Positions 3,527-27,227 of a DNA stretch of 64,000 nucleotides are shown piece by piece. This DNA comes from Candidatus Poribacteria bacterium. Lineage in GTDB: Bacteria; Poribacteria; WGA-4E; PCPOR2b. The notes beneath the pieces were generated by a model. The model saw nothing but the letters and a program-made list of their open reading frames with translations, searched no databases and was not told where the DNA came from. The translations under genes were made by a program, and so were the position numbers. The stretch covers positions 4,765,203 to 4,829,202 of the forward strand of contig OZ244587.1 of the NCBI GenBank assembly GCA_965218095.1, given 5' to 3'. Position 1 is the first letter of the stretch; every line of letters begins with the position of its first letter.

Positions 3527-3589
3527 TGAAGGGAAGGTTTGTCTTTCGGGTGTAAGGAGGAACTGAAGGAAGTGCATCGCACATATCAG

Positions 3590-4543
3590 ATGGCACGGAT
3601 TCTCAAAGTCGCAAGCCTTATCCGCCGTGACCCCAGAAAATGGAATCGCCCACGCCTCGCCCAAGAACTTCGCGTCAATAAAGCAACGATTTCGCGCTAC
3701 ATCGGCGAACTGCGCGAGATGGGAATGCAGGTTATTTCACATGGGCGTGGCGGTTACGAAATCATTACCGATATTTTTCTGCCTGAACTTAACTTTGATT
3801 GGGATGAAGCCCTTGGTCTGGTTACGGCAGCGAGTTTTTACAGGGCGAATGAAGGGCAACAGGCTCAAGGTACGCTTGACAGTGCCATCGCAAAAATTCG
3901 GACGAATCTACCCAAAGGTACTCAGCGCGTCCTGCAACAGATTGTTCCACAGATTGATGTTCCCGATTTTCAGGTGAGCCAGACCGATGAAAGTCAGCCG
4001 CAGCGCGAGACGCTATATGACGCGATTCGGGAACGCCTCAAAGTCAATATCGAATACAACTCCTTCAGCGGTGGAAAACGTAGGCGACATCGGCTTTCGC
4101 CCTATGCCGTCATGTTCCGCAAACGTGCCTGGTACGTCATTGGGCACTCTGAAACGTTCAATCGGATTCTGACCTTCCGCATCAACCGCATCCATTCCTT
4201 CTCTATCGGCCATACCCCCTACACGATTCCCGAGGATTTCTCTGTGCAGAGATACATGGAGAAAAGTTGGGATGTCATGCTCGGTCCGGAGACACACGTC
4301 GTCATCGAGTTCGCGCCACGCATCGCCCCGCTGATTCGAGAGGTGCGTTGGCATTCGACACAGCAGATACAGGAAAACGCTGATGGAGGACTTCGCTTTG
4401 AAGCCACAGTCGCAGGTTGGCTAGAAGTCGGCTGGTGGGTTTTGGGTTGGGGAGATGAGGCAGAAGTGATTGAACCGAGGGAATTGCGGGAGTGGGTCGC
4501 GCAGACGGCACGGAAGATGGTAAGGATGTATCGAAAAAATTAA
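3590..4543 (+). CDS. WYL-domain transcriptional regulator (HTH + WYL + C-terminal extension)
   Basis: N-terminal HTH (ARILKVASLIRRDPRKWNRPRLAQELRVNKATISRYIGEL). WYL-type core (RLSPYAVMFRKRAWYVIGHSETFNRILTFRINRI). The ORF track starts at 3539; the internal Met at 3590 is more likely. Confidence 0.8.
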   Translation: MARILKVASLIRRDPRKWNRPRLAQELRVNKATISRYIGELREMGMQVISHGRGGYEIITDIFLPELNFDWDEALGLVTAASFYRANEGQQAQGTLDSAIAKIRTNLPKGTQRVLQQIVPQIDVPDFQVSQTDESQPQRETLYDAIRERLKVNIEYNSFSGGKRRRHRLSPYAVMFRKRAWYVIGHSETFNRILTFRINRIHSFSIGHTPYTIPEDFSVQRYMEKSWDVMLGPETHVVIEFAPRIAPLIREVRWHSTQQIQENADGGLRFEATVAGWLEVGWWVLGWGDEAEVIEPRELREWVAQTARKMVRMYRKN

Positions 4544-7498: not shown

Positions 7499-7595
7499 AC
7501 CATAATGGCGAGAATCTCGATTACGAGATTGAAATATGGTTGTGTTATATTTTGCCCTAATTGTATGATAAGAATCTCGATTGCGAGATTGAAAT
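7499..7595 (+). CRISPR. Orphan mini-array: two degenerate CRISPR repeats (psiR1 7499-7535, psiR2 7559-7595) around a 23-nt pseudo-spacer
   Basis: psiR1 matches the canonical 37-nt repeat at 27/37 positions, with the 3' 23 nt near-perfect. psiR2 carries GATTGCGAG. Both end GAAAT rather than GAAAC. Located about 640 bp upstream of cas3'. Confidence 0.7.
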
Positions 7596-7603
7596 ATTTT
7601 TAT

Positions 7604-7632
7604 TTGACTTGTTGGGTTGTCTATGTTATAAT
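7604..7632 (+). promoter_or_regulatory. Sigma70-like promoter (TTGACT, 17 nt, TATAAT) directly after the mini-array
   Basis: TTGACT at 7604-7609, a 17-nt spacer, TATAAT at 7627-7632. Confidence 0.5.
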
Positions 7633-7691
7633 TAGTTTATTGTGATGGTAGTGTTATATACTCAATTAGAATAAAAATACAAGGAAATCAA

Positions 7692-7931
7692 ATGCAACCC
7701 TTAAATCCATCTCTGGAAATTCAAGCACATTTAAAAAAAATAGATCGGGAGCAGTCTTATATTGAAGATCGGCATTATGAGATTGGTCAGACTGTAAATC
7801 TTTTAGAACGCGAGAATGCAGATTTACTTGATCGTTATAGCGATCTGGATTCGGCAAAGGAAATTTGCTACAGTGCACTCGCAGGCGACCCCGTCGCGAT
7901 TTGGGCGGAACTTCAGCGGTTCGGACTTTAA
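7692..7931 (+). CDS. Small hypothetical protein (79 aa) downstream of the mini-array and promoter
   Basis: ATG with AAGGAAA RBS 6 nt upstream. Predicted helical/charged. No known domain. Confidence 0.35.
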   Translation: MQPLNPSLEIQAHLKKIDREQSYIEDRHYEIGQTVNLLERENADLLDRYSDLDSAKEICYSALAGDPVAIWAELQRFGL

Positions 7932-8236: not shown

Positions 8237-10330
8237 GTGATTAAACTTAGAGTCAAACCTGTATACTCTCGAAAGGCGGAAGTTGTTCCCATCAAGAACG
8301 GCCCCGAAGGGCTTGAGTTTCGACAACACCAAGTCGAAACCTATAAAGCGATTCAGGATCCAGATGTAGATGTGATCTTCAATAGGGCAATGACCGGTGA
8401 TGGAAAAAGTTTAGCCGCGTATCTTCCCGCGCTGACGGAAGGCAGGTCAATCCTAGCTATGTACCCAACTAACGAATTAATCAAAGATCAAGAACGACAA
8501 GTGCAGGGATACTGCCAGTGGTTTGAGCAAAATATTGCCTGCGACAAGATGTTTGGGGAACGGCTGTACAAACTTCGTGCAGAATTGACAGATCTACGCG
8601 GGCAAAAAGCCGCGATTGAACTTTTGGCTCTAAAGAATCCAATTCTACTCACAAATCCGGATATCTTTAATCTAATCGCCAATTTTCACTATCTGAACCC
8701 CGAATATGAAAACCCAGATCAGTTGGTACAGCACATTATCGACTATTATGATCTGTTTATCTTCGACGAGTTTCATATCTATGATGTCTCGCAGGTCATC
8801 TCTGTTCTGACAACCATGTTGTATTTCATCGAGCAGGGACGTGGCAAATTCAATCAGAAAAAGTTCGTCTTTCTCTCTGCGACACCGAGCCCACTCCTGC
8901 TGGATTGTTTGGAGAAGGTGAATCTCCGATACAAAATCATCGAAGGGTGTTATCAATTCGATGAACTGGATTCAGCGAATTGGGACGGAATCTGCGCGCC
9001 ATTCGACTTACATTTCCACGCAACGGGTCGCCGTACCGAAGAATGGGTCGAAAACCATTATCAGCAAATCGCCGAGTGGTTTGCCGATAATCCGAATTCA
9101 CGTGGGGCAATTATTGTCAACTCGGTTGCAGCGGCGAAACGAATTTCCTTGTTTCTCAAAGAACGAAACGTGGCGGGGGATTTTCCTCTGAACGTTGGCG
9201 AAAATACTGGACTCAGCAGTCGGGAAGAACGACGTTTTGCTCTCCACGAAAGTGACCTGCTCATCGGGACCTCAACGGTAGATGTCGGTGTTGACTTCAA
9301 AATCAACTTTCTTGTCTTTGAGGCGATAGACGCAGGTTCGTGGATTCAAAGGCTTGGACGGCTTGGTCGGCATTCAGAATACGCAACACCTGACGGGGCG
9401 GTTATGAAGTTTGACCGTTTCGTTGCTCACTCGCTTCTGCCCAAATACGTCTACGAACGGATTGAGCAAGTCGTCACGTCGGATTCAGAAATTGACAAAG
9501 GGACTCTGATTGACCTCATGCGAAGTGAGGATGAGAATAAACGGATTTTCTCTCCCATCAACGATTTTCGCAACTATAAAAAGTCTTGGGGTTGGTTGCA
9601 CGCTTCGCATATCATCAACACTTTGGGGCATCCACGATTGCGCGAAAACTATGCACCCCAGCGAGAAAAACTCACGAAGGTCTATACCGACATTTTCGAG
9701 GCGGATATCGAAACGCGAGCAACAAAATGGTATTTCGCTGTTAAAAATAAACGGCCGGAAATCATTGATTCTGCTGTGATTCAATTTCGTGGTGAGACAC
9801 CTTTCACATGTGGAATCATTGATGAAACAGATGGCGAGGTGAAAGACTACAATCTCCTGTGGACGTTAAGCAACGCCGAAGTCGAATTCATGGACAAGAC
9901 GGATTTCATGCAAGAAATCCAATCGCGGGGAATTCCACCCCGTCAGTTTCGGTCCGTTGGCATCTATCTCCGATTACATGGATATCGCTCAGAGCGAGAG
10001 CGTTTTCACCTGACTCAGAGCCGCAAGATTGGGAAGCAGTTTACTGACGAAGATTACCGTCAGTTGCATACGCTCAAGGGGTTTGAGATTGATGGTAATT
10101 TTCCAGAAATTAACAAAATCAATCGTTGGTTGCGCATAAAACCGCATCTTTGCCTTGTTTGTAAAGAGCCGTTGGGTGATTTACGGCGGCTGTTACGTCT
10201 GCCGATGATGTTTTCCATTTTCTCGCTACTTGATCGGGATGGTAACGAATTCAGCGTCGTATTTTCAAAGGACGCGCTCTTGTTACATTCTCAGCCCTAC
10301 ATTTGGGCGAAGGAGGATTCTAATGGCTGA
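8237..10330 (+). CDS. cas3': CRISPR-associated helicase Cas3' (type I-D; no HD domain)
   Basis: GTG start with a GGAGGG RBS. Helicase motif I MTGDGKS, DExH box FDEFH, motif VI QRLGRLGR. No HD motif. First gene of the cas operon. Confidence 0.8.
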   Translation: MIKLRVKPVYSRKAEVVPIKNGPEGLEFRQHQVETYKAIQDPDVDVIFNRAMTGDGKSLAAYLPALTEGRSILAMYPTNELIKDQERQVQGYCQWFEQNIACDKMFGERLYKLRAELTDLRGQKAAIELLALKNPILLTNPDIFNLIANFHYLNPEYENPDQLVQHIIDYYDLFIFDEFHIYDVSQVISVLTTMLYFIEQGRGKFNQKKFVFLSATPSPLLLDCLEKVNLRYKIIEGCYQFDELDSANWDGICAPFDLHFHATGRRTEEWVENHYQQIAEWFADNPNSRGAIIVNSVAAAKRISLFLKERNVAGDFPLNVGENTGLSSREERRFALHESDLLIGTSTVDVGVDFKINFLVFEAIDAGSWIQRLGRLGRHSEYATPDGAVMKFDRFVAHSLLPKYVYERIEQVVTSDSEIDKGTLIDLMRSEDENKRIFSPINDFRNYKKSWGWLHASHIINTLGHPRLRENYAPQREKLTKVYTDIFEADIETRATKWYFAVKNKRPEIIDSAVIQFRGETPFTCGIIDETDGEVKDYNLLWTLSNAEVEFMDKTDFMQEIQSRGIPPRQFRSVGIYLRLHGYRSERERFHLTQSRKIGKQFTDEDYRQLHTLKGFEIDGNFPEINKINRWLRIKPHLCLVCKEPLGDLRRLLRLPMMFSIFSLLDRDGNEFSVVFSKDALLLHSQPYIWAKEDSNG

Positions 10331-14295: not shown

Positions 14296-14991
14296 ATGCA
14301 AGTCACGAGATGCCGCCTTATCCTGCACGACTCTCTCTACTACGCGACTCGTGAGATGGGGCGACTGTACGAGACGGAGAAGGTCATCCACAATTGGGCG
14401 TTGACGTATGCGCTCGGTTTGATTCAAAAGCCGTATAGATCATTTAACAGCGTTCCAACTTATCAGGAGGACCTCACACCAATCAATGCGGCAGGTGTCT
14501 ATGTGACACCTGCCAAACCGATTCATTATGATTATATAATCAGTACCTTCAAATTCGCGGACAATCGACATCGCCCGTTTTCAACTGTCAGCAATACGCG
14601 AAAAAGGGAGTTGAAGATTACTGTGACGAACAAACCATCTTTCGGCAAGGCGAAGGAACTTGCGCCGGAGAGCGAGTTTGAATTTTTCATCATGGGTAAA
14701 TTGCCCGAACGGGTCCCGAAGTGGATCCGGTTGGGATTGTGGATGAGCAAAGCAAAAATCGAAATCAAAGATCGTCAGGACTTGACCGTTCAACGGGGTC
14801 AATTTACATGTCCTCACTTGTTGAATCCGCTAGATCTTTCAATTCGGCCGCAACTCTATGATCTGATCTCGATGCCGCCGGTGAGTCTTCTTCAAAATGT
14901 GACTTTGACAGGCGAGTACGTTGCGTTTCAGAGAGAGCAAGAAACAGTTTGTTTACCAGCCACAATGAGATATTTTGCAAACTCAACTTAG
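14296..14991 (+). CDS. csc1: Cas5 subunit (Csc1-type, type I-D)
   Basis: 231 aa. TAGGAGGG RBS. Lies between cas7 and cas6 as in I-D operons. Assigned mainly by synteny. Confidence 0.5.
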   Translation: MQVTRCRLILHDSLYYATREMGRLYETEKVIHNWALTYALGLIQKPYRSFNSVPTYQEDLTPINAAGVYVTPAKPIHYDYIISTFKFADNRHRPFSTVSNTRKRELKITVTNKPSFGKAKELAPESEFEFFIMGKLPERVPKWIRLGLWMSKAKIEIKDRQDLTVQRGQFTCPHLLNPLDLSIRPQLYDLISMPPVSLLQNVTLTGEYVAFQREQETVCLPATMRYFANST

Positions 14992-15848
14992 AAAAGTTCA
15001 CCATGCCCATCAGCACCGTTATCTACCTCATCCCCCCCGAAGATGTCACACTTCGTCCGACGATGGGGCATCACGCGCACGCTGCGTTCCTATCGCTGTT
15101 GCGAATTGGCAATCCGGAAAAAGCGGAAGAAATTCACGCCACATCCGCGCAGAAACCGTTTACTGTTTCGCCGCTGATTGGTAAAGGCGAACGACGTGGG
15201 GATTTCCTGCACATCCGCGCTGGAACGGAATGCTGGCTCCGCTTTACGTTCCTCGACGATGAACTCTTCGCCTACTTCGGCAACGCCTTCTTGACACAGC
15301 AACTGCCGTCCATCCGCATCGGACAGGCGATGTTTCAACTCAGCCGATTGAATTCATCTGGGACAGAGGGTAAAGATTGGAGCGGCGCAAGAACCTACGA
15401 AGACCTAATTGAATCTGCGCGGACAGACACTCGGATTCAGATGCGATTCCATTCGCCGACCGCCTTTCGGGAACTGACTCCGCACGGGCGAAAAACACGC
15501 AATCAAGCAAATATTGACCTGCAACGTTGCTATCAGAGTTGGGTCAACAAATGGAATGCCTTCGGACCGATGCAGATTGATAAGCAACGCCTTCTCGATT
15601 TCGTGGTCGGTCACGCCGGGCTGACCACAGTTGAGGCCAAGAGCCGGATGCTCGATTTCGGCAGACATAAGGCGGTCGGATTTGTTGGAAATTGTGCATA
15701 CCAATTTTTCGTGAAGCGTCAATCCGATGATGAGGGTAACATTGAGATGTTACGTTTGGTGAACCTGCTCGCCGATTTCGCCTTTTACTGTGGCACCGGC
15801 TACAAAACGACGATGGGGATGGGACAGACGCGGCGACGACAATCCTGA
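14949..15848 (+). CDS. cas6: Cas6 crRNA endoribonuclease
   Basis: C-terminal glycine-rich loop GTGYKTTMGMGQ typical of Cas6. The start may be the downstream Met at 15003. Confidence 0.75.
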   Translation: MFTSHNEIFCKLNLEKFTMPISTVIYLIPPEDVTLRPTMGHHAHAAFLSLLRIGNPEKAEEIHATSAQKPFTVSPLIGKGERRGDFLHIRAGTECWLRFTFLDDELFAYFGNAFLTQQLPSIRIGQAMFQLSRLNSSGTEGKDWSGARTYEDLIESARTDTRIQMRFHSPTAFRELTPHGRKTRNQANIDLQRCYQSWVNKWNAFGPMQIDKQRLLDFVVGHAGLTTVEAKSRMLDFGRHKAVGFVGNCAYQFFVKRQSDDEGNIEMLRLVNLLADFAFYCGTGYKTTMGMGQTRRRQS

Positions 15849-16208
15849 TCACGAGATTGACATCAGATCGACATCAAGTGCCTCGGCAATCGCCTTCAAC
15901 GTTTTGACGGAACCGGACTTTCGTCCTGTCTCAATCCCCGCTAAATATGCACGTTGAATGCCGGTTTTATCCGCAAGTTGCTTCTGTGTGAGTCCCCGGT
16001 ACTCGCGATACACCTTGATCGGATTCTCCTCATTGAGAATCAGCCGATTAATCACCTCGCCGGGGAAGGTTTCCTCATCAATGGCTTTCGCCCTACGAAA
16101 ATCACGAATGTCTCTAAGCATCTCCGCATCTGCAAGGAGTTGGTCGTAATGCTCTATCGGTACAAGGGCAAATTTCTGACCTTCTATTTCTACTGTTTCA
16201 AGGCTCAT
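15849..16208 (-). CDS. higA: XRE-family HTH antitoxin (HigA-like)
   Basis: HTH LTQKQLADKTGIQRAYLAGIETGRKS. ATGA overlap with the upstream toxin gene. Confidence 0.75.
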   Translation of the reverse strand: MSLETVEIEGQKFALVPIEHYDQLLADAEMLRDIRDFRRAKAIDEETFPGEVINRLILNEENPIKVYREYRGLTQKQLADKTGIQRAYLAGIETGRKSGSVKTLKAIAEALDVDLMSIS

Positions 16209-16462
16209 TTATACACACCGCCTCTCGGTCCAATTTTTACGATTTCAAGTACAAAGGTGTCATCATGGAGTTCATACAGCACTCGCCAGTCACCCACTCT
16301 GAGCCGGTATCCCGGCTCACCTGTTAGGCGTGTTATATTATTGTTCGGCGCGTAAGGATTCTCAGCAAGTTGGTTAATCTTCCCAACAACGGTTTTCGCT
16401 ACATTACTGGGCATCCGCTGGAGCATCTTCATCGCGCTTGCTCGATATCGAATCTGATACAT
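16205..16462 (-). CDS. higB: RelE/ParE-family toxin (HigB-like)
   Basis: ...KLTGEPGYRLRVGDWRVLYELHDDTFVLEIVKIGPRGGVYK is a RelE/ParE signature. The toxin-first order is typical of higBA. The start is set at the internal Met; the ORF track extends to 16501. Confidence 0.75.
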   Translation of the reverse strand: MYQIRYRASAMKMLQRMPSNVAKTVVGKINQLAENPYAPNNNITRLTGEPGYRLRVGDWRVLYELHDDTFVLEIVKIGPRGGVYK

Positions 16463-16547
16463 GATGCCCCTTATTGTAGCTAAAAGCAACCTGAAAATCA
16501 AGCATTTCCGTTACACACCCCGTTCCACAAATCTGGAGTATTAAACC

Positions 16548-18230
16548 ATGTCCGAAACCTACATACCGCTTTCGCAGATAAACACCTATGTCTTCTGCCC
16601 GCGCCGATTCTACTACGAATCCGTTGAGGGCCATCAGGTGATTAACGAGCATGTCGAAGAGGGGAAGATCAAACACGCCCGCGTTGATACGGAGATGAAA
16701 GGTCGCAACGAGCGCGGGGTGAAGGTCTCGCGTCGACAATACCTCGCCTCTGATGCACTTGGTGTCTCCGGTTATCTCGATCTAATTGAAGAGAAGGACG
16801 GTGTGCCGTATCCGGTCGAATACAAGAAAGCCGGCACCGGCAACTGGCTCAACGATCAGGTTCAACTCTGTCTACAAGGGATGCTAATCGAAGAGAGCAC
16901 TGGCATTGAGGCGCCTCACGGCTATATCTACTACATCGGCTCCAAACGCCGCCGAAAGGTGGTCTTTGATGACGAACTGCGGCAGACCAGTCTCGACTTT
17001 GTCTCTAACGCCGAATCGCTGTTGCAGACAAGAAAGATTCCCGAACCGGTCCACGACAACCGGTGTAACGGGTGTAGCGTCCGAGGCATCTGTCTTCCAG
17101 ACGAGGTTGCCTATCTCCATGAATTAGACGATCGACCAAAACGCATCAAACCTGTGCTTGGGATCGATAACGTGCTGTATGTCGATGAAGCGGGCTGTAT
17201 ACTCAAAAAAACTGGGGAACGCCTGCTCGTTGTCAAAGAGGGAGAAACCATCCGCGACATTCCGCTCATCCATCTCGGCCAGGTTGTGCTTTGTGGCAAC
17301 ATCAGTGTGACGACCCCGGTGATGCAAACCCTGCTCAACGAGGGGATTCCGGTTGTTTACCTGTCTGCGTACGGACGCTATCAGGGAACGCTTACGCCGA
17401 AAATCTCCCGAAACTCACTCCTGCGCGTCGCTCAACATCGGATCGCGGATGACCCGGAAAAGTGCCTCGCGCTCGCGAAAGCGTTTGTACATGGCAAAAT
17501 CACGAACATGCGGATGATGCTCCAGCGTCGGAAATGGCGGAACAGAACGACCAACGACAAAGATCTCGATTGCGAAGTTGAAACAAACGGAATCGAAACT
17601 GAGGACAGGCACGCCGACATTTTATCGAGCATTAAGGGACTCGCTGCGATGCGCCGGAAGATTCCCAAAGCGGAACGGCTCCCTGAACTGCTTGGTATTG
17701 AAGGTAACGCCTCTGCCGCGTATTTCCAATCGTTTTCCGCCATGCTCAAACCAGAAATGGGATTTGACTTTGAACGCCGCTCCCGCCGACCACCCGCGGA
17801 TGCGACCAATTCGTTGCTTAGTTTTGCCTACTCGCTATTGACAGCGGATCTGATTTCCGCCATCCAGCTTGTCGGACTCGACCCATACGTGGGGTTCTTC
17901 CATCAACAGAATTACGGGCGTCCCTGCCTCGCATTAGACCTCATGGAGGAGTTCCGTCCGATCATCGCCGATTCAGTTGTGATTACGCTCATCAACAAAC
18001 GGCAGATTAAACCGGATGACTTCACCCAATCGCACGGCGGCTGGTTCCTCAAAGACGCCGCCCGCAAGCGGTTCTACGCCGCCTACGAGGGACGCAAAAA
18101 TGAGACGATTACACACCCTGTCTTCAAGTACAAAATCAACTTTCGCCGTGCAGTCGAATTACAGGTACGATTGCTTGCCAAGTGTCTAATGGGAGAGATT
18201 GAAACCTACACGCCGCTGACAGTTCGATAG
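16548..18230 (+). CDS. cas4-cas1: Cas4-Cas1 fusion protein (adaptation)
   Basis: N-terminal Cas4: Cys in FCPRRFYY plus the C-terminal CNGCSVRGIC cluster (4-Cys Fe-S), and a PD-(D/E)xK core (DLIEE...EYKK). C-terminal about 330 aa is Cas1-like. Confidence 0.85.
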   Translation: MSETYIPLSQINTYVFCPRRFYYESVEGHQVINEHVEEGKIKHARVDTEMKGRNERGVKVSRRQYLASDALGVSGYLDLIEEKDGVPYPVEYKKAGTGNWLNDQVQLCLQGMLIEESTGIEAPHGYIYYIGSKRRRKVVFDDELRQTSLDFVSNAESLLQTRKIPEPVHDNRCNGCSVRGICLPDEVAYLHELDDRPKRIKPVLGIDNVLYVDEAGCILKKTGERLLVVKEGETIRDIPLIHLGQVVLCGNISVTTPVMQTLLNEGIPVVYLSAYGRYQGTLTPKISRNSLLRVAQHRIADDPEKCLALAKAFVHGKITNMRMMLQRRKWRNRTTNDKDLDCEVETNGIETEDRHADILSSIKGLAAMRRKIPKAERLPELLGIEGNASAAYFQSFSAMLKPEMGFDFERRSRRPPADATNSLLSFAYSLLTADLISAIQLVGLDPYVGFFHQQNYGRPCLALDLMEEFRPIIADSVVITLINKRQIKPDDFTQSHGGWFLKDAARKRFYAAYEGRKNETITHPVFKYKINFRRAVELQVRLLAKCLMGEIETYTPLTVR

Positions 18231-18541
18231 CGGTTGTAGGGGCAATGCCTTGTGCTTGCCCATAGTAGAGGTGAGATTGAAACCTACACGCCGCTGACAG
18301 TTCGATAGCGGTTGTAGGGGCAATGCCTTGTGCTTGCCCATAGTAGAGGTGAGATTGAAACCTACGCGCCACTGACAGTTCGATAGCGGTTGTAGGGGCA
18401 ATGCCTTGTGCTTGCCCATAGTAGAGGTGAGATTGAAACCTACGCGCCACTGACGGTTCGATAGCGGTTGTAGGGGCAATGCCTTGTGCTTGCCCATAGT
18501 AGAGGTGAGATTGAAACCTACGCGCCACTGACGGTTCAATA
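18194..18541 (+). repeat. 78-bp tandem repeat, about 4.4 copies, starting inside the last codons of cas4-cas1
   Basis: Unit GAGATTGAAACCTAC(A/G)CGCC(G/A)CTGAC(A/G)GTTCGATAGCGGTTGTAGGGGCAATGCCTTGTGCTTGCCCATAGTAGAGGT, with starts at 18194, 18272, 18350, 18428 and 18506. Each unit contains two hairpins and the 11-mer GAGATTGAAAC, identical to the 3' end of the CRISPR repeat. Confidence 0.9.
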
Positions 18542-18561
18542 GGCTGTCGGAGGAGAAACCG

Positions 18562-18834
18562 ATGTTTTACGCAGTTGCCTATGATATTACCAATGACCGG
18601 CGGCGAAACGCAGTTGCCAAAATTTTGCTAGATTTCGGCACACGCATCCAATATAGTATATTTGAGTGCAACACCGATCGACGCGCTTACCTCCGGCTAC
18701 AAGATCGGCTTCAGGATGCCATCAATCCCAAGGAGGATGCTGTGACTTTCTATCATCTCTGCCGGTCCTGCGAGAAGGGGATCGAACGGATTGGTATCAA
18801 AAAAGGAATTGACAAAGCCGCGTATATCGTTTAG
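18562..18834 (+). CDS. cas2: Cas2
   Basis: MFYAVAYDITNDRRRNAVAKILLDFGTRIQYSIFEC is canonical Cas2. 90 aa. GGAGGAG RBS. Confidence 0.85.
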   Translation: MFYAVAYDITNDRRRNAVAKILLDFGTRIQYSIFECNTDRRAYLRLQDRLQDAINPKEDAVTFYHLCRSCEKGIERIGIKKGIDKAAYIV

Positions 18835-19066
18835 CATCCAAATCGGGCATAAGGGCATTCGGGTTCGGAAAACTCAACTGTCAACCGCTGAGCTAACAAA
18901 AAGCGAAGTGTCCGACAGGATCGGTGAAGAGACTGTTATGATAGGGGTTTGACGATGTACCTTTTTGAAAATCGCCCATTTCAACTGGATCAACAACTGA
19001 AACATCCAAGTCTGACAGAAAGCAGTGTTCAAAATGCTTGCTGTTACTGGCTTTCAAATGGTCGCT
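18835..19066 (+). promoter_or_regulatory. CRISPR leader region
   Basis: Non-coding 230 bp between cas2 and the first repeat. The conserved repeats are at this end; the degenerate repeats are at the far end. Confidence 0.6.
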
Positions 19067-22000
19067 CGATCAATGATAAGAATCTCGATTACGAGATTGA
19101 AACGCAAATATCGTGAAAATGGCGGGGTTGTATGGGTGGACGATCAATGATAAGAATCTCGATTACGAGATTGAAACATGTCAACGAAACGGTACAACAA
19201 CTCGCCGATGATGCGATCAATGATAAGAATCTCGATTACGAGATTGAAACGTAAAAGGTGGGAGATGCCCCCAGCTGGGTTGCTGGGCGATCAATGATAA
19301 GAATCTCGATTACGAGATTGAAACTACATTAATAATGAGCCGCTCCGCGACTTTGGTGGTGACGATCAATGATAAGAATCTCGATTACGAGATTGAAACA
19401 AATATCATCGGGATGATCTACCAATTTATCCGCAATCGATCAATGATAAGAATCTCGATTACGAGATTGAAACCAACGCTCGGGTTGCGACATCGACACT
19501 CCCAAACCCTCGATCAATGATAAGAATCTCGATTACGAGATTGAAACGCATCAGTAATGATATACTCCGACGAAGCGAACCTGTCCGATCAATGATAAGA
19601 ATCTCGATTACGAGATTGAAACTACATTATGATAGCAATGGCAACCACAACGGCTATACGATCAATGATAAGAATCTCGATTACGAGATTGAAACTCACC
19701 GGTGCTAACGACATCCGACGGAATACCCGGCTCGATCAATGATAAGAATCTCGATTACGAGATTGAAACCAGGTGAGGGAATCGCTTTCAGATCGCGAGA
19801 TACGCACGATCAATGATAAGAATCTCGATTACGAGATTGAAACATAATCCTCAGCATCATACGCTTCAAACGGTTTAATCGATCAATGATAAGAATCTCG
19901 ATTACGAGATTGAAACGGAACGCCGGCGCTGCATACAGTGTTTAATCGCGCCTTCGATCAATGATAAGAATCTCGATTACGAGATTGAAACACTGCCATG
20001 CTTTCCAGAGAGTCATAGTGCGGTCGCCGATCAATGATAAGAATCTCGATTACGAGATTGAAACTGAGACAACCTGTACTTTTCAATCCTCCAGTGAACA
20101 CCGATCAATGATAAGAATCTCGATTACGAGATTGAAACGACAAAGAGCGGATCAGAACTCTCCTCAGTATCCCCGATCAATGATAAGAATCTCGATTACG
20201 AGATTGAAACGACAGCCTCCGAGAAGAAGCCCGACGACTCAACATCACCCCCGCGATCAATGATAAGAATCTCGATTACGAGATTGAAACCTGGGTGGAA
20301 CGGCGCAATGGGATAGCGACGAATTTCGACGATCAATGATAAGAATCTCGATTACGAGATTGAAACACATGGCATGGAAACTCGGGCTGATGGGAATCTG
20401 GGATCGATCAATGATAAGAATCTCGATTACGAGATTGAAACAAGTCCAAAATCGTCCCGTCCAGCAACAACACCTCTAAAACGATCAATGATAAGAATCT
20501 CGATTACGAGATTGAAACAGAGATTCGCTGGGAATTAGGCGCATCCTCATCGAGGCGATCAATGATAAGAATCTCGATTACGAGATTGAAACTACCACGA
20601 CCGCGAAGGGCGCCCCCGACAGTATCTTCCGATCAATGATAAGAATCTCGATTACGAGATTGAAACCAAGTACCACTTCGATGTTGCCACTCACCGTCGC
20701 GGTGTTCGATCAATGATAAGAATCTCGATTACGAGATTGAAACCAGCAAGTCAGGGTACGATTTGCGAGTCTGCCCGATGACGATCAATGATAAGAATCT
20801 CGATTACGAGATTGAAACAAAACGGTAGGACCAACAACGAAATTTGGACAGGCAGCTCGATCAATGATAAGAATCTCGATTACGAGATTGAAACTGTAAA
20901 CGATAATGACGATCTTGAAGTCGGCACACAATTCGATCAATGATAAGAATCTCGATTACGAGATTGAAACAGCTATAACCAAGACCGCATCCTGATTCCG
21001 ATGGAGATTCGATCAATGATAAGAATCTCGATTACGAGATTGAAACAAGTCCAAAATCGTCCCGTCCAGCAACAACACCTCTAAAACGATCAATGATAAG
21101 AATCTCGATTACGAGATTGAAACGACTGAGTTCTATCGAGAATACCCGTCAACGCCGGAGGACGATCAATGATAAGAATCTCGATTACGAGATTGAAACT
21201 CCCCGTCGTCGCCGCAGACAGCGCACCCGACGCCCCGATCAATGATAAGAATCTCGATTACGAGATTGAAACGCGAAACGTGCGATTTCTCTGCCGAAGC
21301 GGATGGAGATACGATCAATGATAAGAATCTCGATTACGAGATTGAAACCAGCGAATATCTTGGGACCCATCCTCTGCTGATCGTATCATCGATCAATGAT
21401 AAGAATCTCGATTACGAGATTGAAACGAAGGGCACACCATTGATGTACAATCGATAATCGAACTCGATCAATGATAAGAATCTCGATTACGAGATTGAAA
21501 CCACTGGGGCATCCATCAGTACCGATTGAGATATACGAATCGATCAATGATAAGAATCTCGATTACGAGATTGAAACTTGTGATCCACCTGCGCCCATCG
21601 CGCTATCTGCCTGTCGATCAATGATAAGAATCTCGATTACGAGATTGAAACACAGGCACGATTTCAGGAAAGACGGTCATCCCGTTTGACGATCAATGAT
21701 AAGAATCTCGATTACGAGATTGAAACGAGATTCAACAGATCCCGCGCTGCACCCCGCCGTCCCGACGATCAATGATAAGAATCTCGATTACGAGATTGAA
21801 ACTACCATGCCAGAAATAGCGGTTCAAAGTTGCTTTCGCGATCAATGATAAGAATCTCGATTACGAGATTGAAACACAGACGCATCATCGGTATCGGGGT
21901 CAACCACCGCTTCCGATCAATGATAAGAATCTCGATTACGAGATTGAAACTTCTATAATCCAAATAGTTCAAAAATACTCAGTGTTCGATCAATGATAAG

Positions 22001-23940
22001 AATCTCGATTACGAGATTGAAACCGTTGAAAGGTGGGAATATGGCAAAGATTCAATTAGGCGATCAATGATAAGAATCTCGATTACGAGATTGAAACAAC
22101 ATCATCAAACGGCAGGATAAATTCACCCGATGTTGCGATCAATGATAAGAATCTCGATTACGAGATTGAAACTCAAGGCATTTACTCCTTCGAGGGATGG
22201 CGGGCTGAGGAGCGATCAATGATAAGAATCTCGATTACGAGATTGAAACCAGTGGCTGCTTCGTTGCGCGGATACCACCGCTTGCGATCAATGATAAGAA
22301 TCTCGATTACGAGATTGAAACGCGGCGGTGAGTTACTTTCCCTTGTTCAATCCGGCTACCCGATCAATGATAAGAATCTCGATTACGAGATTGAAACCGG
22401 AACTGGATCAACTGACTGAGCAGGGTAAGCAGAACGATCAATGATAAGAATCTCGATTACGAGATTGAAACTAACGTCTCGCGTCTCATGTTCCGCGTCT
22501 GCCGGTGCGATCAATGATAAGAATCTCGATTACGAGATTGAAACTGGTGCGCAAGTGCTGGGTGCGCGTGCGGGTCGTGCCAAGCGATCAATGATAAGAA
22601 TCTCGATTACGAGATTGAAACAGCCGTTGGTATCACGTCTTTGTGGGTTTCGTCAACGATCAATGATAAGAATCTCGATTACGAGATTGAAACGAAACCA
22701 ATAATCGTGTACCATTTTTGATACGATTCGCCACGATCAATGATAAGAATCTCGATTACGAGATTGAAACTCTGAAGATTTCAGCGTTATCAATCAAATA
22801 CGCTTTACGATCAATGATAAGAATCTCGATTACGAGATTGAAACAGAAATGACTTCCCATTCGGAACGTGGCAAGTTTATACGATCAACGATAAGACACT
22901 CGATTGCGAGATTGAAACAAACCCAAACCAGAGGCATGGATAAAGTGTGGATAACGATCAACGATAAGAATCTCGATTACGAGATTGAAACATGAATGAA
23001 CACCACCAGAAGATTTGTTGATGGCTGTACGATCAACGATAAGAATCTCGATTACGAGATTGAAGCTGCTGAGCTCTCACCATGTGGAAGTCGGCGTGAA
23101 GCGATCAACGATAAGACACTCGATTACGAGATTGAAACTTCCCACACCTCTCGTGGCAGTGTCTGAGGTTCAGGGAACGATCAACGATAAGACACTCGAT
23201 TGCGAGATTGAAACGGGGGTGGTATTGTATTTGTTGCGTGAGTCCGTGTTTTCGATCAACGATAAGAATCTCGATTACGAGATTGAAACCCGCAGCCGGC
23301 GGAGCGGAGAATACAGCGCATTCAACGATCAATGATAAGAATCTCGATTACGAGATTGAAACTTATCAGACAGTACCACTTCAAGCCCATTTAATCTGCG
23401 ATCAACGATAAGAATCTCGATTACGAGATTGAAACAGCGGTGCAAACCGATTAAGGCGCCAGGCCTCGAACAACGATCAACGATAAGAATCTCAATTACG
23501 AGATTGAAACATGGTAGAGGGTAAGAAAGCTCACCAGATGGAGATCGCCGCCGATCAACGATAAGACACTCGATTGCGAGATTGAAACAGTTTCGATTTG
23601 ACTCCCATCAGTTTGACTCCTTTTTTTTGTGCATGCACAAGAAAATTCGCCGCACGATCAACGATAAGATTCTCGATTACGAGATTGAAACGTGGAAAAC
23701 AGATGAAATACAAAAAGCCATCGGAAACTCCCGATGCTTCTGTTGAAGTCGGCGTTGAAAAAGATGCTGTTGATGGATTCTCTTACGGTGTTCTGGAGCG
23801 AGTCACGGTATTGAGTCCATGCGGACCTCGGATCAGGGAATCGATACCTGTTGCCTCCCACGACGTAAGAAATGAAGCGCGAGTTGCGGCGGGGGAAACA
23901 GAACAACCTACGATAAGACTCTCGATTACGAGATTGAAAC
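19067..23940 (+). CRISPR. CRISPR array: about 65 copies of the 37-nt repeat CGATCAATGATAAGAATCTCGATTACGAGATTGAAAC, with spacers of about 34-38 nt
   Basis: Read directly. The repeat contains the hairpin AATCTCG-atta-CGAGATT followed by the ATTGAAAC 5'-handle. Repeats from about 22883 onward carry substitutions (CAACGAT, GACACTC, GATTGCG, GAAGC). The terminal relic repeat at 23909-23940 is preceded by an aberrant 217-bp interval. Confidence 0.97.
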
Positions 23941-24188: not shown

Positions 24189-25361
24189 TTGAAATTTGAC
24201 GCCCAGCGAGCGTATTATTATATTGCCCAGCTTGCCTTTCCAAGGGCGGTTGGCAGCGCGGGAAAATCCAAAGCACGGGCTTATATCGTCAAGCAACTTA
24301 CACAGCTCGGATTAAGCGTGGAGCAGGAGGCGTTTGACTTTACCTTATTTCCCGCCGAGGTCTTGCCTCGCTTGATCTCGGCGGCCTACACCGTTGGCGT
24401 GATAGGCGTTTGCTGGCTGAGTGGCAACCGACCAACAGGCGCCAGCCTTTTATGCGTCGGTATGTTGGTGATTGCCCTATCGCTAACGCGCTGGCAGAAA
24501 AGACTGGAATGGCTCTATAATGTTGGCAGAGCACACACGTCAAAAAATATCGTCGCCACAAGTACGCCATCTATTGGTGCAAATTTCGATTTCATCTTCG
24601 TCGCGCATTACGACTCCAAGTCGCAGGTGCTGTCGATTGCAGTGAGGGCGTTATGTTATTATGTTGCCGTCGTTGGTTTAATCGGATTGACGCTGCTAAT
24701 GCTCATTCAGATGTCTCCTTTGAAGGTCACATTGTCCTTGCCTTTGATCTGGCCGATTGGTGTCTCTATCTGTCTTTGCCTCCTGCTCTTGCAATTCAAC
24801 TTCACGCAAAACGGTTCCCCCGGCGCATTTGACAATGCCTCTGGTGTTGGTGTCTTGCTGGAGCTCGCCCGTTGCCTTGCAGCACAGCCGCTGACCAACA
24901 AGGTGCGCCTGACTTTCCTATCGCCAGGGGCTGAAGAGTACGGGATGTGCGGCGCCCTGCGCTACATCCAACGGCACGCGGAAACCTACCATCCGGATCG
25001 GACTTACGTCATCAACCTCGACAGCCTCGGCGCGAGCGGAAAACTGACCCTTATCACACGCTACGGAATTCCACCTGTGGCGACAAGCAGAAGCCTGGGT
25101 CAAGCCATTATCGCATACGGGAGGGAAATTGGCGTTGAAGTTTCGGAGATCTATTCGCTGACAGGTGTTGGATTCGATCAGATTCCAATTGCCAGTCGCG
25201 GATTTGAAGCTGTAACACTGTCGTCGGGCGGATTTGGTGGGGCTGCCTTAAAAATTCACTCCAAACGCGATCGAATCGATCTGATTCACGAGGACAGCTT
25301 ACAGCAGGTTGGGGATGTGCTCGTGCATTGTGTGGAACGGGAATACAAGATGCAGATCTGA
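24189..25361 (+). CDS. M28-family zinc aminopeptidase with internal membrane segments
   Basis: HYDS, DNASG and EE(Y) zinc-ligand blocks. Hydrophobic stretch in the middle. Confidence 0.65.
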   Translation: MKFDAQRAYYYIAQLAFPRAVGSAGKSKARAYIVKQLTQLGLSVEQEAFDFTLFPAEVLPRLISAAYTVGVIGVCWLSGNRPTGASLLCVGMLVIALSLTRWQKRLEWLYNVGRAHTSKNIVATSTPSIGANFDFIFVAHYDSKSQVLSIAVRALCYYVAVVGLIGLTLLMLIQMSPLKVTLSLPLIWPIGVSICLCLLLLQFNFTQNGSPGAFDNASGVGVLLELARCLAAQPLTNKVRLTFLSPGAEEYGMCGALRYIQRHAETYHPDRTYVINLDSLGASGKLTLITRYGIPPVATSRSLGQAIIAYGREIGVEVSEIYSLTGVGFDQIPIASRGFEAVTLSSGGFGGAALKIHSKRDRIDLIHEDSLQQVGDVLVHCVEREYKMQI

Positions 25362-25396
25362 ATCCTGAATCTCTGAATCCACGAAGGGTCATTCAA

Positions 25397-26038
25397 ATGC
25401 AAAATCACATGGAAGCAACCACGGGCGTCATCCTCGCCGGTGGATGCAGTCGCCGGATGGGGCAGAACAAGGCGTTGATGCGTTTGGGAAATGAGGCGAT
25501 CATCGCCCATGTCGTCCGCCAGATGCGAGCCGTCACAGATGAGCTCCTGCTAATCACGAATACGCCAGAACTATACGCTCATTTGGGCTTGCCGATGCAT
25601 GCGGATATCCTGTCAGACATGGGCACATTAGGCGGCATCTACACCGGGCTGACTTACGCTGTAAACAGCACCGCGCTCTGTGTCGGCTGCGATATGCCAC
25701 TGTTGCAGCCGAATCTCTTATCTCACCTGATTGCCATCTTGGGAGAATATGATGCTGTCGTTCCATGCGTGAAAAAAGTTAATCGACCTGTCCCCATCTT
25801 CCAAACGCTATCCGCCGTTTATTCCAAACGGTGTTTGCCGGTCATCGATCAGATGCTCGCGGAGGGAGAATTGCGCGTTCATGCGCTGTACGAGCGAATC
25901 TCCGTCCGTATCGTCGAACCCAATGAATGGCAGGCGCTTGATTTACAGGGACTGTCGTTTTTCAATATTAACACACCTGAAGATTTTGAAAAAGCAAAGC
26001 AGATGAAGATGGAGGGAAATGGCCATGCTAAGTGTTGA
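25397..26038 (+). CDS. mobA: Molybdenum cofactor guanylyltransferase MobA
   Basis: GVILAGGCSRRMGQNKAL motif. The start is taken at Met 25397; the ORF track extends to 25328. Confidence 0.8.
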   Translation: MQNHMEATTGVILAGGCSRRMGQNKALMRLGNEAIIAHVVRQMRAVTDELLLITNTPELYAHLGLPMHADILSDMGTLGGIYTGLTYAVNSTALCVGCDMPLLQPNLLSHLIAILGEYDAVVPCVKKVNRPVPIFQTLSAVYSKRCLPVIDQMLAEGELRVHALYERISVRIVEPNEWQALDLQGLSFFNINTPEDFEKAKQMKMEGNGHAKC

Positions 26039-27227
26039 AGAAGCGCGTAAACGAATGCTGGACACCATTACCGTTTTATCCACAGAGACGTGCAGCATTT
26101 CAGACAGCCTTGGGTATGTGCTTGCCGAGGGTGTCTATGCCAGCGAGAACATACCACCGTTTCACAACTCAGCGATGGATGGCTTCGCTGTGATTGCCGA
26201 AGATATATCAAACGCTTCCAAAGATTGCCCGGCCCAGCTTTCAGTCATTGAAATCATCCCGGCGGGATATGCGCCGACTAAGCGAGTTGTGCGGGGACAA
26301 GCGGCGCAAATCATGACCGGCGCCATGATGCCCGAAGGTGCGGATGCCGTTGTGATGAAGGAAGTGACGCAGTTGGAAGGGGATGAAGTCACAATCTTTG
26401 AGGGGATAGAAAAAGATGGAAACGTCCGGTTCACAGGCGAAAGTGTGAAGCAGGGCGATCTGGTCATGTCCAGAGGGAAGCTCATCCGTCCGCAGGAGAT
26501 CGCGATGTTTGCTTCGCTGAACCGATCGGAAGTGAAAGTTTACAGATGTCCAAAAGTCGCGGTGGTTTCCACGGGCGATGAGCTCACGCCGCTCGGCGAG
26601 GCGCTGAAGCCGGGTAAGATTCGGGATAGCAACCGCTACGGCATCTGCGCACAGATCGAAGAGGCGGGGTGTTATCCGATTGACATGGGAATTGCCCGTG
26701 ATGATGAGGCAGAGACAGAACGCAAGTTCCGCGATGCGTTGGATCAGGCGGACGCGCTCATCACCAGCGGCGGCGTTTCTGTTGGAGAATACGATGTGGT
26801 CAAAACGGTGCTATCCAGGCTCGGTGAGATCAATTTCTGGCGAGTGGCGATGAAGCCGGGAAAACCGCAGGCTTACGGCATCGCTGACGGCAAGCCAATC
26901 TTCGGATTGCCGGGGAATCCGGTGTCTTCGCTGGTTGTGTTTGAGCTCTTTGTCCGTCCAGCTCTGCTCAAAATGGCGGGTCACGCCAGCCTACTTCGTC
27001 CGACCTTCAAAGCAGTTTTGGAAGAAGGTGTCGTCAACAGAGATGGGCGGGTCAGCTATATGCGGTCGATCATCACACCGTGTGACGGGAAGTATTACGC
27101 GAAGACGACGGGACCACAGGGTTCGGGCATCCTCTACTCACTTGTCTTGGCGAATGGCTTTATTGTTATTCCGCCGGGAGCAGCGATGAAGGCTGGCGAA
27201 GTCGTGGAAGCGCAGTTTATGGGATAA
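26019..27227 (+). CDS. moeA: Molybdopterin molybdotransferase MoeA
   Basis: MoeA N-terminal, MoCF-binding (GGVSVGEYD) and C-terminal domains. Overlaps the mobA stop. Confidence 0.85.
   Translation: MAMLSVEEARKRMLDTITVLSTETCSISDSLGYVLAEGVYASENIPPFHNSAMDGFAVIAEDISNASKDCPAQLSVIEIIPAGYAPTKRVVRGQAAQIMTGAMMPEGADAVVMKEVTQLEGDEVTIFEGIEKDGNVRFTGESVKQGDLVMSRGKLIRPQEIAMFASLNRSEVKVYRCPKVAVVSTGDELTPLGEALKPGKIRDSNRYGICAQIEEAGCYPIDMGIARDDEAETERKFRDALDQADALITSGGVSVGEYDVVKTVLSRLGEINFWRVAMKPGKPQAYGIADGKPIFGLPGNPVSSLVVFELFVRPALLKMAGHASLLRPTFKAVLEEGVVNRDGRVSYMRSIITPCDGKYYAKTTGPQGSGILYSLVLANGFIVIPPGAAMKAGEVVEAQFMG

Follow-up and report, generated by a model that had tools for sequence, protein, structure and literature searches.

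Addiction modules have been described in or near CRISPR-cas loci on several occasions. The cas cassettes of the Sulfolobales have vapBC pairs scattered among their genes, for which a role in maintenance was proposed but not tested (PMC4390879). A RelE-Xre pair, ssl7039/ssl7038, is located on pSYSA, a CRISPR plasmid found in Synechocystis sp. PCC 6803, and its mRNA is listed as leaderless (PMC4963859); toxicity and RNase activity of Ssl7039, the latter ribosome-independent in vitro, were shown experimentally according to the account of Kopfmann and Hess (2013) relayed in that paper. CreTA modules, which are RNA-based and lie near cas6, have been proven by experiment to be an addiction device (PMC9458426, PMC10097628). 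Here a protein toxin-antitoxin (TA) pair is described which lies antisense between cas6 and cas4-cas1 in a 64,000-nucleotide (nt) stretch of the genome of a Candidatus Poribacteria bacterium (contig OZ244587.1, positions 4,765,203 to 4,829,202). This whole stretch is referred to as the window, and coordinates are those of the window unless a locus is named. The pair is probably an intact, self-regulated type II TA operon, a mobile addiction cassette carried as an antisense passenger in a permissive cas junction. Its features are:

15849 to 16208 and 16205 to 16501, minus strand: the two open reading frames (ORFs) of the pair as found in the ORF list, of 119 amino acids (aa) and of 98 aa from TTG (85 aa from ATG 16462), respectively
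16205 to 16462, minus strand: RelE-family toxin gene, 85 aa, MYQIRY...GGVYK (Pfam PF05016, PDB profile matches, AlphaFold2 (AF2) fold)
15849 to 16208, minus strand: antitoxin gene, 119 aa, with a C-terminal XRE helix-turn-helix (HTH) (HTH_3, AF2 fold)
16473 to 16501, minus strand: promoter-like site of the pair, -35 TTGATT (16501-16496), 17-nt spacer, -10 TACAAT (16478-16473), from a consensus scan

The two genes have the layout of a type II TA operon, being small, adjacent, co-oriented and overlapping, with a PF05016 protein partnered by an HTH_3 protein. The overlap is the 4-nt ATGA at 16205-16208, read directly from the sequence, in which the toxin stops and the antitoxin starts. The original prediction of a RelE/ParE toxin and an XRE-HTH antitoxin, encoded toxin first with an ATGA overlap and antisense between cas6 and cas4-cas1, was confirmed by the sequence and by Pfam. 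Its extension of the pair to 16501 was not borne out. The toxin homologues and the public gene calls are all 85 aa long and start with MY, and TTG 16501 falls on the first base of the -35 hexamer; because of this the true toxin start, as judged from the sequence, is almost certainly ATG 16462.

The stop codon of cas6 (15846-15848) abuts that of the antitoxin gene (15849-15851) with zero spacer, whereas in most orthologous loci cas6 and the antitoxin gene overlap by 12 nt. The pair is convergent with cas6 and divergent from cas4-cas1, from which it is separated by an 85-nt spacer. The proposal that it is transcribed convergently against the operon is therefore correct for cas6 but not for cas4-cas1. 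Orthologues of both genes are intact in 6-7 other species-level genomes, and across 7-8 loci the toxin orthologues had a median omega (dN/dS) of 0.20 and the antitoxin orthologues one of 0.13, so the two ORFs are not chance ORFs; on this evidence both genes look functional, and they are under purifying selection. The pairing of toxin and antitoxin was retained in every context examined. The exact 85-aa toxin sequence was found in public gene calls, and the exact antitoxin sequence gave zero matches among public assemblies.

Based on Pfam, the toxin belongs to PF05016 (ParE_toxin; E 1.8e-9, 38.5 bits with a cut-off of 23, profile positions 1-86 of 89). When a family profile of 33 homologues was compared with the PDB, all nine matches at E <= 0.01 were RelE-type chains, including Pyrococcus horikoshii aRelE (1wmi, 3.3e-12), E. 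coli RelE (1e-7) and Mycobacterium tuberculosis RelE1 and RelE2; no ParE or HigB chain was among these matches. The AF2 model of the toxin (predicted local distance difference test (pLDDT) 89; elements E3-6, H8-16 and H19-34 and four strands) fits the small alpha/beta fold of the RelE/ParE proteins, in which two N-terminal helices lie on an antiparallel sheet. The best Foldseek matches of the model were RelE1, aRelE and RelE with template-modelling (TM) scores of 0.78-0.83, followed by YoeB, HigB2, YafQ and ParE2, the last with TM 0.52-0.60. Assignments of the toxin to ParE and to HigB were both rejected on the sequence matches and the fold ranking. The predicted toxin is thereby placed, on sequence and model, in the RelE/ParE superfamily on the RelE side.

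The catalytic residues of E. coli RelE are K52, K54, R61, R81 and Y87. In the HMMER alignment R53, R55, R60, R80 and Y84 of the toxin correspond to K54, R56, R61, R81 and Y87 of RelE, so that four of the five catalytic positions are represented, and all five toxin residues are invariant among the 33 homologues. Apart from the K52 position, where the toxin has G51, loss of catalytic residues, which had been named beforehand as a possible sign of an inactive pair, was thus not seen.

The antitoxin matched HTH_3 over residues 64-115 (Pfam, E 7.5e-14). In its AF2 model (pLDDT 90), residues 1-60 form two short strands followed by a long helix, and residues 61-119 a five-helix XRE domain. Sequence matches in the PDB were confined to residues ~61-119, and the XRE domain had C-proteins, SinR and HipB as fold matches, while the only full-length fold match was the uncharacterised 3kxa. 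If it works like other HTH antitoxins of two domains, neutralisation of the toxin would fall to the N-terminal part and DNA binding to the C-terminal part. The original prediction called the pair HigBA-like, which is appropriate to the gene order and the type of HTH. It does not suit the proteins themselves: no HigB-family Pfam model matched the toxin at E <= 0.01, no HigA model was among the NCBIfam results for the antitoxin at E <= 0.001, a single weak HigA chain (6af3, E 0.0077) was matched by the HTH part only, and the toxin groups with RelE both by sequence and by fold.

The hexamers TTGATT and TACAAT with their 17-nt spacer constitute a putative sigma-70-like promoter of the pair. Both hexamers are near-invariant in eight cas-linked loci, including L011 (loci are given by L numbers), which has no toxin gene. 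Paralogues outside cas loci keep TTGACA-17-TACA(A/C)T with the spacer motif GTTGCTTTnnGCTAC. The 17-nt spacer with its conserved GTTGCTTTnnGCTAC is a candidate operator and the only one in 15800-16600; it is an imperfect 4/5 inverted repeat, and no convincing palindromic operator was found in that region. The toxin ATG lies 10 nt past the -10 box, and the TA mRNA is therefore predicted to be leaderless or near-leaderless. A consensus scan recognised no plus-strand promoter for cas4-cas1 in the 85-nt spacer, and no intrinsic terminator was detected between the convergent cas6 and antitoxin genes. Transcription of cas4-cas1 in TA loci would therefore need either read-through against TA transcription or an unrecognised promoter. 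A scan of 14500-19200 with Rfam at E <= 1 gave zero matches. Small palindromic elements resembling miniature inverted-repeat transposable elements (MITEs) or repetitive extragenic palindromes (REPs), with the core CCGGTGCGGTTnnAAACCGCACC, were seen inserted beside the TA promoter in two loci (L011, positions 9620-9990 of that locus; L064, positions 9700-9960). In L011 such an element occupies the place of the toxin gene, and in L064 two copies separate the TA promoter from cas4-cas1.

The distribution of the pair was examined in 71 loci of species-representative genomes, which were found with the Cas4-Cas1 protein (57-90% identity) and all came from Candidatus Poribacteria, which are sponge symbionts. 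The Cas and TA proteins of the window were mapped on them by tblastn, and the gap between cas6 and cas4-cas1 was measured in the 67 loci having both genes. In 44 of the 67 loci cas4-cas1 follows cas6 after a gene-free 15-258 nt, which often holds nothing more than a ribosome-binding site between the stop codon of one gene and the start codon of the next. No TA remnants were found at the TA-less junctions, only GGAAG-rich microsatellite-like spacers. The same antisense pair was present at the same spot, with 79-86% amino-acid identity, in seven (L010, L011, L014, L015, L060, L064 and L069). Since the pair occurs in 7/67 loci and 44/67 have no gene in the gap, it is an insertion and not a core gene of the operon, and the view that it is foreign to the usual operon held up. 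In L011 the toxin gene is replaced by the MITE-like insert while the antitoxin gene is intact; this is the order of decay expected of a live toxin.

Other genes were found in the same slot. Eleven of the 67 loci carry a same-strand gene of the PF05635 four-helix-bundle family, three carry insertion sequence (IS) transposases and one (L037) carries an HTH-WYL-WCX regulator. From these varied inserts the cas6|cas4-cas1 junction is concluded to be an insertion hot spot. The PF05635 ('23S rRNA-intervening sequence') genes lie in L013, L024, L026, L030, L036, L038, L040, L043, L063, L065 and L067, and are often preceded by GGAAG-rich microsatellite-like repeats.

The pair was also found outside cas loci. 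TA paralogues with 72-78% identity occupy a conserved site beside type I restriction-modification (R-M) genes. A TA lineage as close to the pair as the cas-linked ones (86% identity) lies between genes for an apurinic/apyrimidinic (AP) endonuclease and PhyH on at least 24 contigs, and relatives of the toxin occur on 928 plasmid records, typically labelled as a RelE/ParE toxin with an adjacent HTH regulator. Linkage to cas genes is therefore not obligate. At the AP-endonuclease/PhyH site the following part of the window is shared:

15840 to 16596, unstranded: 757-nt unit running from 9 nt beyond the antitoxin stop through the TA operon and its promoter region to nt 49 of cas4-cas1 (blastn, 84-85%, with the AP-endonuclease/PhyH-site copies L078-L086)

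Since this copy carries the first 49 nt of cas4-cas1, it must have left a cas locus. In one of these copies (L078) the pair is split by an IS605/TnpB element.

The host locus is a hybrid in its gene content. Upstream of cas6 are cas3', cas10d, csc2 (cas7d) and csc1 (cas5d), which scored far over the cut-offs of TIGR03158, TIGR03174, TIGR03157 and TIGR03159, respectively. The fused Cas4-Cas1 passes the type I-G model cas4g_cas1g (621.5 bits, cut-off 560) and fails the Cas1d model cas1_CYANO (374.9 bits, cut-off 385); type I-D effector genes are therefore combined here with a I-G-like adaptation module. Downstream of cas4-cas1 are cas2 and a CRISPR array (19067-23940) with a 37-nt repeat. The genes flanking the pair, and the segment in which it is shared with other contigs, are:

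15003 to 15848, plus strand: cas6, 281 aa from ATG 15003, ORF from 14949 (Pfam CRISPR_Cas6_N and CRISPR_Cas6; NCBIfam cas_cas6; public records 281 aa)
16548 to 18230, plus strand: cas4-cas1 fusion (Cas_Cas4 and Cas_Cas1; NCBIfam cas4g_cas1g)
14998 to 18308, unstranded: 3.3-kb (3311-nt) cas6-TA-cas4cas1 cassette (L072, L073 and L074 compared with the window by blastn, 97-98% DNA identity)

Three further contigs, all from one metagenome sample, encode an identical toxin, with three kinds of effector module alongside. The homology of 14998-18308 with L072-L074 ends at the start of cas6, and because this segment is shared beside different effectors, the pair lies inside a recombining cassette and not at a module boundary. 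The species set agrees with this: the identity of cas6, TA, cas4cas1 and cas2 is similar whether the upstream module is of the I-D type or of a divergent type (22-37% identity). Over L001-L071 and L072-L074 the cas6-cas4cas1-cas2 cassette is joined to at least three effector modules, and some genomes have two such loci. The modules are one in the I-D order cas3'-cas10d-csc2-csc1, a divergent one in the order cas10d-csc2-csc1-helicase (22-37% identity), and one of unannotated proteins with a Cas3 of 625-628 aa. In Poribacteria, cas6, the adaptation genes and the array thus move together as a single unit that is exchanged between effector modules. The pair had been described as sitting between the interference and adaptation modules; this is so by function, but in evolution the recombining unit is cas6-TA-cas4cas1, with its boundary at the cas6 start.

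The most probable explanation of the pair is as follows. By homology the toxin would act as a RelE-type ribosome-dependent mRNA endonuclease and would be neutralised by the N-terminal 60 residues of the antitoxin, whose C-terminal XRE HTH would repress the pair's own sigma-70-like promoter and with it a bicistronic, leaderless or near-leaderless mRNA. The pair would perpetuate itself as an addiction cassette, kept because losing it is costly, and it belongs to a family that is common both in Poribacteria and on plasmids. One TA lineage would have landed antisense in the insertion-tolerant cas6|cas4-cas1 junction, breaking the ancestral co-transcription from cas6 to cas4cas1, and would then have been inherited with the cas6-cas4cas1-cas2-array cassette as this was joined by recombination to different effector modules. 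Post-segregational toxicity would incidentally penalise any deletion of the cassette.

Several observations weigh against this explanation. The residue of the toxin equivalent to the catalytic K52 of RelE is a glycine (G51), and the toxin scored 21.4 bits with the NCBIfam model RelE_StbE (TIGR02385), below its cut-off of 27.9, because of which it is not filed in the RelE/StbE subfamily. The case for toxicity, neutralisation and operator binding is drawn from homology. The synonymous divergence (dS) is 0.31-0.49 for the TA genes and 0.85-0.87, about twice as high, for cas6 and cas4cas1, a difference for which simple co-inheritance does not account. A further point is that no cas4-cas1 promoter was found in the 85-nt spacer. 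Finally, the 757-nt copy that escaped and the numerous loci without the pair show that cas genes can be kept or lost independently of it. Any stabilising effect would be local and weak. In a sliding-window comparison the DNA identity of the TA region (0.85-0.89) was modestly higher than that of its flanks (0.77-0.85), a difference not decisive for a recent spread of the pair between loci.

There was so far no sign of a special link of the pair to immunity, and no positive support for control of the adaptation genes by the antitoxin, for a dormancy back-up or for a safeguard dependent on Cas6 or Cascade. The first of these, although unlikely, survives best among the alternatives. The antitoxin or the TA complex, acting in the 85-nt region together with convergent TA transcription, would here be a co-opted regulator which sets the expression of cas4-cas1-cas2 and so controls spacer acquisition. 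The TA -35 hexamer is just 46 nt from the cas4-cas1 start codon in a spacer which is conserved throughout, the insertion disrupts an otherwise tight cas6-cas4cas1 junction, the convergent genes have no terminator between them, and the slot in L037 holds a regulator gene. However, the promoter and the spacer motif are equally conserved in copies without a cas neighbour, from which it follows that these elements serve the TA pair itself. In addition, no plus-strand promoter was detected, a MITE-like insert of 250 nt is tolerated in L064 between cas4-cas1 and the TA promoter, and the escaped copy retains the region without cas4-cas1.

Next in order is a role in dormancy or abortive infection, which is quite doubtful. 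In such a role shut-off by a phage, or stress, would deplete a labile antitoxin and RelE would halt translation, gaining time for CRISPR interference or adaptation. A coupling of immunity and dormancy is established in the literature (PMC6452270), and the pair and its paralogues do occur in defence contexts, here with CRISPR-Cas and in L075-L077 with type I R-M genes and an HTH/M78 pair. Equally close copies lie among housekeeping genes, however, the sequence has nothing that links activation to infection, and no co-variation with cas genes was seen beyond linkage.

A domestication of the pair by the CRISPR cassette is improbable. It would mean either that the antitoxin and convergent transcription gate cas4-cas1-cas2 or that repeat-like hairpins make TA expression Cas6-dependent. 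If it were true, the low dS of the TA genes would reflect additional RNA constraints. A Cas6-dependent pair would be a protein-toxin counterpart of CreTA guarding the cas6-adaptation cassette, while a small repeat array upstream of the operon, described below, would guard or regulate the effector genes.

Sequences similar to the CRISPR repeat were found at and near the pair. One is at the junction with cas6:

15841 to 15860, unstranded: imperfect stem-loop at the cas6 and antitoxin stop codons, like the 3' part of the CRISPR repeat (17/20 identical to the window repeat)

In L010 the corresponding junction matched the window repeat at 23/26 positions (score 20; background mean 7.05, sd 1.5). 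The stem-loop does not covary with the repeat of its own locus and its stem is decaying in L014, L015 and L064, on which grounds it was rejected as a maintained Cas6 site. A second hairpin lies within the antitoxin ORF at 16018-16046 on the minus strand, a perfect 7-bp stem (GATTCTC-AATGAG-GAGAATC) in a stretch 23/29 identical to the repeat of L069. It is partly dictated by the conserved peptide NRLILNEEN, which is also found in non-cas paralogues.

Upstream of the cas operon there is a mini-array, in which two degenerate CRISPR repeats, one at 7499-7535 with 9 mismatches and the other at 7559-7595 with 7, flank a 23-nt pseudo-spacer. It is followed by a strong TTGACT-17-TATAAT promoter at 7606-7634. 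The best match of the pseudo-spacer in the entire window is at 7645-7667, where 15 of the first 16 nt are identical and GTG precedes them; the protospacer-adjacent motif of type I-D systems is GTN. This match is at the start of a transcript leading to an ORF of 79 aa (7692-7931), which matched no Pfam family, and then to cas3'. From its sequence the mini-array looks like a Cascade-guided repression element of the CreR/CreTA type. Ectopic repeats upstream of cas3' were also seen in L025, L044, L046, L050, L054, L055, L060 and L067. As a guide against the TA promoter the pseudo-spacer was rejected, its best match in 15800-16600 being at chance level (14/23, seed 8/12).

These sequences bear on a CRISPR-controlled safeguard, a protein analogue of CreTA in which repeat-like sequences expose the TA or antisense RNA to Cas6 or Cascade and the loss of Cas frees the toxin. 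The stem-loop at the cas6 and antitoxin stops, which resembles the repeat at up to 23/26 positions, the hairpin inside the antitoxin ORF and the presence of a Cre-like mini-array upstream of cas3' are in its favour. It is nonetheless very improbable, since the junction hairpin lacks covariation and decays in three loci, part of the resemblance comes from antitoxin coding sequence common to non-cas paralogues, a second flanking repeat is absent, and the pseudo-spacer matches the promoter region upstream of cas3' and the TA region at a chance level only. The pair is scarcely likely to be an inactive relic or a ParE-type gyrase poison instead of an mRNA interferase: the top Pfam model bears the name ParE_toxin, the RelE_StbE score is below its cut-off and related copies do decay (toxin deleted in L011 and split in L078), but both ORFs are intact and under purifying selection, the PDB sequence matches are all RelE-type, the fold of ParE2 gave TM 0.52-0.60 compared to ~0.8, and the C-terminal Arg and Tyr used by RelE are invariant.

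Further repeat-like sequences lie away from the pair. A degenerate full-length CRISPR repeat (29/37) occurs in frame in cas4-cas1 at 17548-17584 and encodes TNDKDLDCEVET. It sits in a 15-aa insertion which distinguishes a 560-aa form of the protein (window, L001-L009) from a 545-aa form, and over this stretch the window is just 60-66% identical to the other TA-bearing loci. Between cas4-cas1 and cas2, at 18192-18581, there are approximately five tandem 78-nt units, the first of which overlaps the end of cas4-cas1. The CRISPR repeat's 3' end, GAGATTGAAAC, closes each unit, and the whole resembles a degenerate array of one repeated 'spacer'. The Cre-like mini-array, the in-frame repeat in cas1 and the repeat-tailed 78-nt units, rather than the TA pair, are the more unusual features of the window. 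In the CRISPR array a spacer is duplicated, 115 nt of repeat-spacer-repeat at 20404-20518 being 100% identical to 21009-21123. A gene for an HTH_11-WYL-WCX regulator was found upstream of the cas operon at 3539-4543. Genes of the mobA-like and moeA kinds bound the locus (25328-27227 region), and as the R-M-linked TA paralogue of L075-L077 has the same neighbours, a common defence-island site is suggested.

On the present evidence the pair is a selfish cassette of an ordinary type that sits in a permissive site, and its value is mainly that of a documented example. If it is active, the loci would provide a natural series, comprising the cas6-cas4cas1 cassette with TA, without TA, with other inserts and with the toxin deleted, for the question of whether a cas-embedded protein TA pair stabilises or tunes the operon, on which most work stops at hypotheses.

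In comparison with known systems, the toxin has the fold of those of E. coli RelBE and P. horikoshii aRelBE (4fxe, 4v7k, 1wmi; TM ~0.8) and, except at the K52 position, the same basic/Tyr catalytic set. The antitoxins differ, RelB antitoxins being ribbon-helix-helix or unrelated proteins encoded upstream, while the antitoxin of the window is an XRE-HTH protein encoded downstream. Vibrio cholerae HigBA2 (5ja8, 8a0x) shares with the window pair the toxin-first order and a toxin of the RelE superfamily, but HigB2 is a weaker fold match (TM 0.73-0.76, 14-15% identity). In the HigBA2 antitoxin the neutralising segment is N-terminal and the HTH C-terminal; HigA2 was not among the fold matches of the window antitoxin.

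The vapBC pairs of the Sulfolobales are, like the window pair, type II protein TA systems in cas cassettes, and their regions are variable and transposon-rich (PMC4390879). They differ in having PIN-domain toxins and archaeal hosts and in lying mostly in type III or I-A loci, with no fixed insertion site reported (PMC4390879). The ssl7039/ssl7038 pair likewise has a RelE toxin first and an HTH-Xre antitoxin second, on a TA-rich plasmid dominated by CRISPR-Cas systems including one of type I-D (PMC4963859). It lies between cas cassettes on that plasmid and not in a chromosomal cas6|cas4 junction. CreTA is similar in being an addiction module within a cas locus near cas6, where it could make losing the locus costly. 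Its toxin and antitoxin are both small RNAs, and antitoxicity depends on Cascade and on a pseudo-spacer directed at the toxin promoter, whereas the window pair consists of two proteins, has a putative promoter of its own and is not the target of the local pseudo-spacer; the pair has one partial repeat-like hairpin only, and the pseudo-spacer matches 15800-16600 no better than by chance. Mobile addiction cassettes of this kind are already known from CRISPR loci, and the pair is probably an ordinary one.

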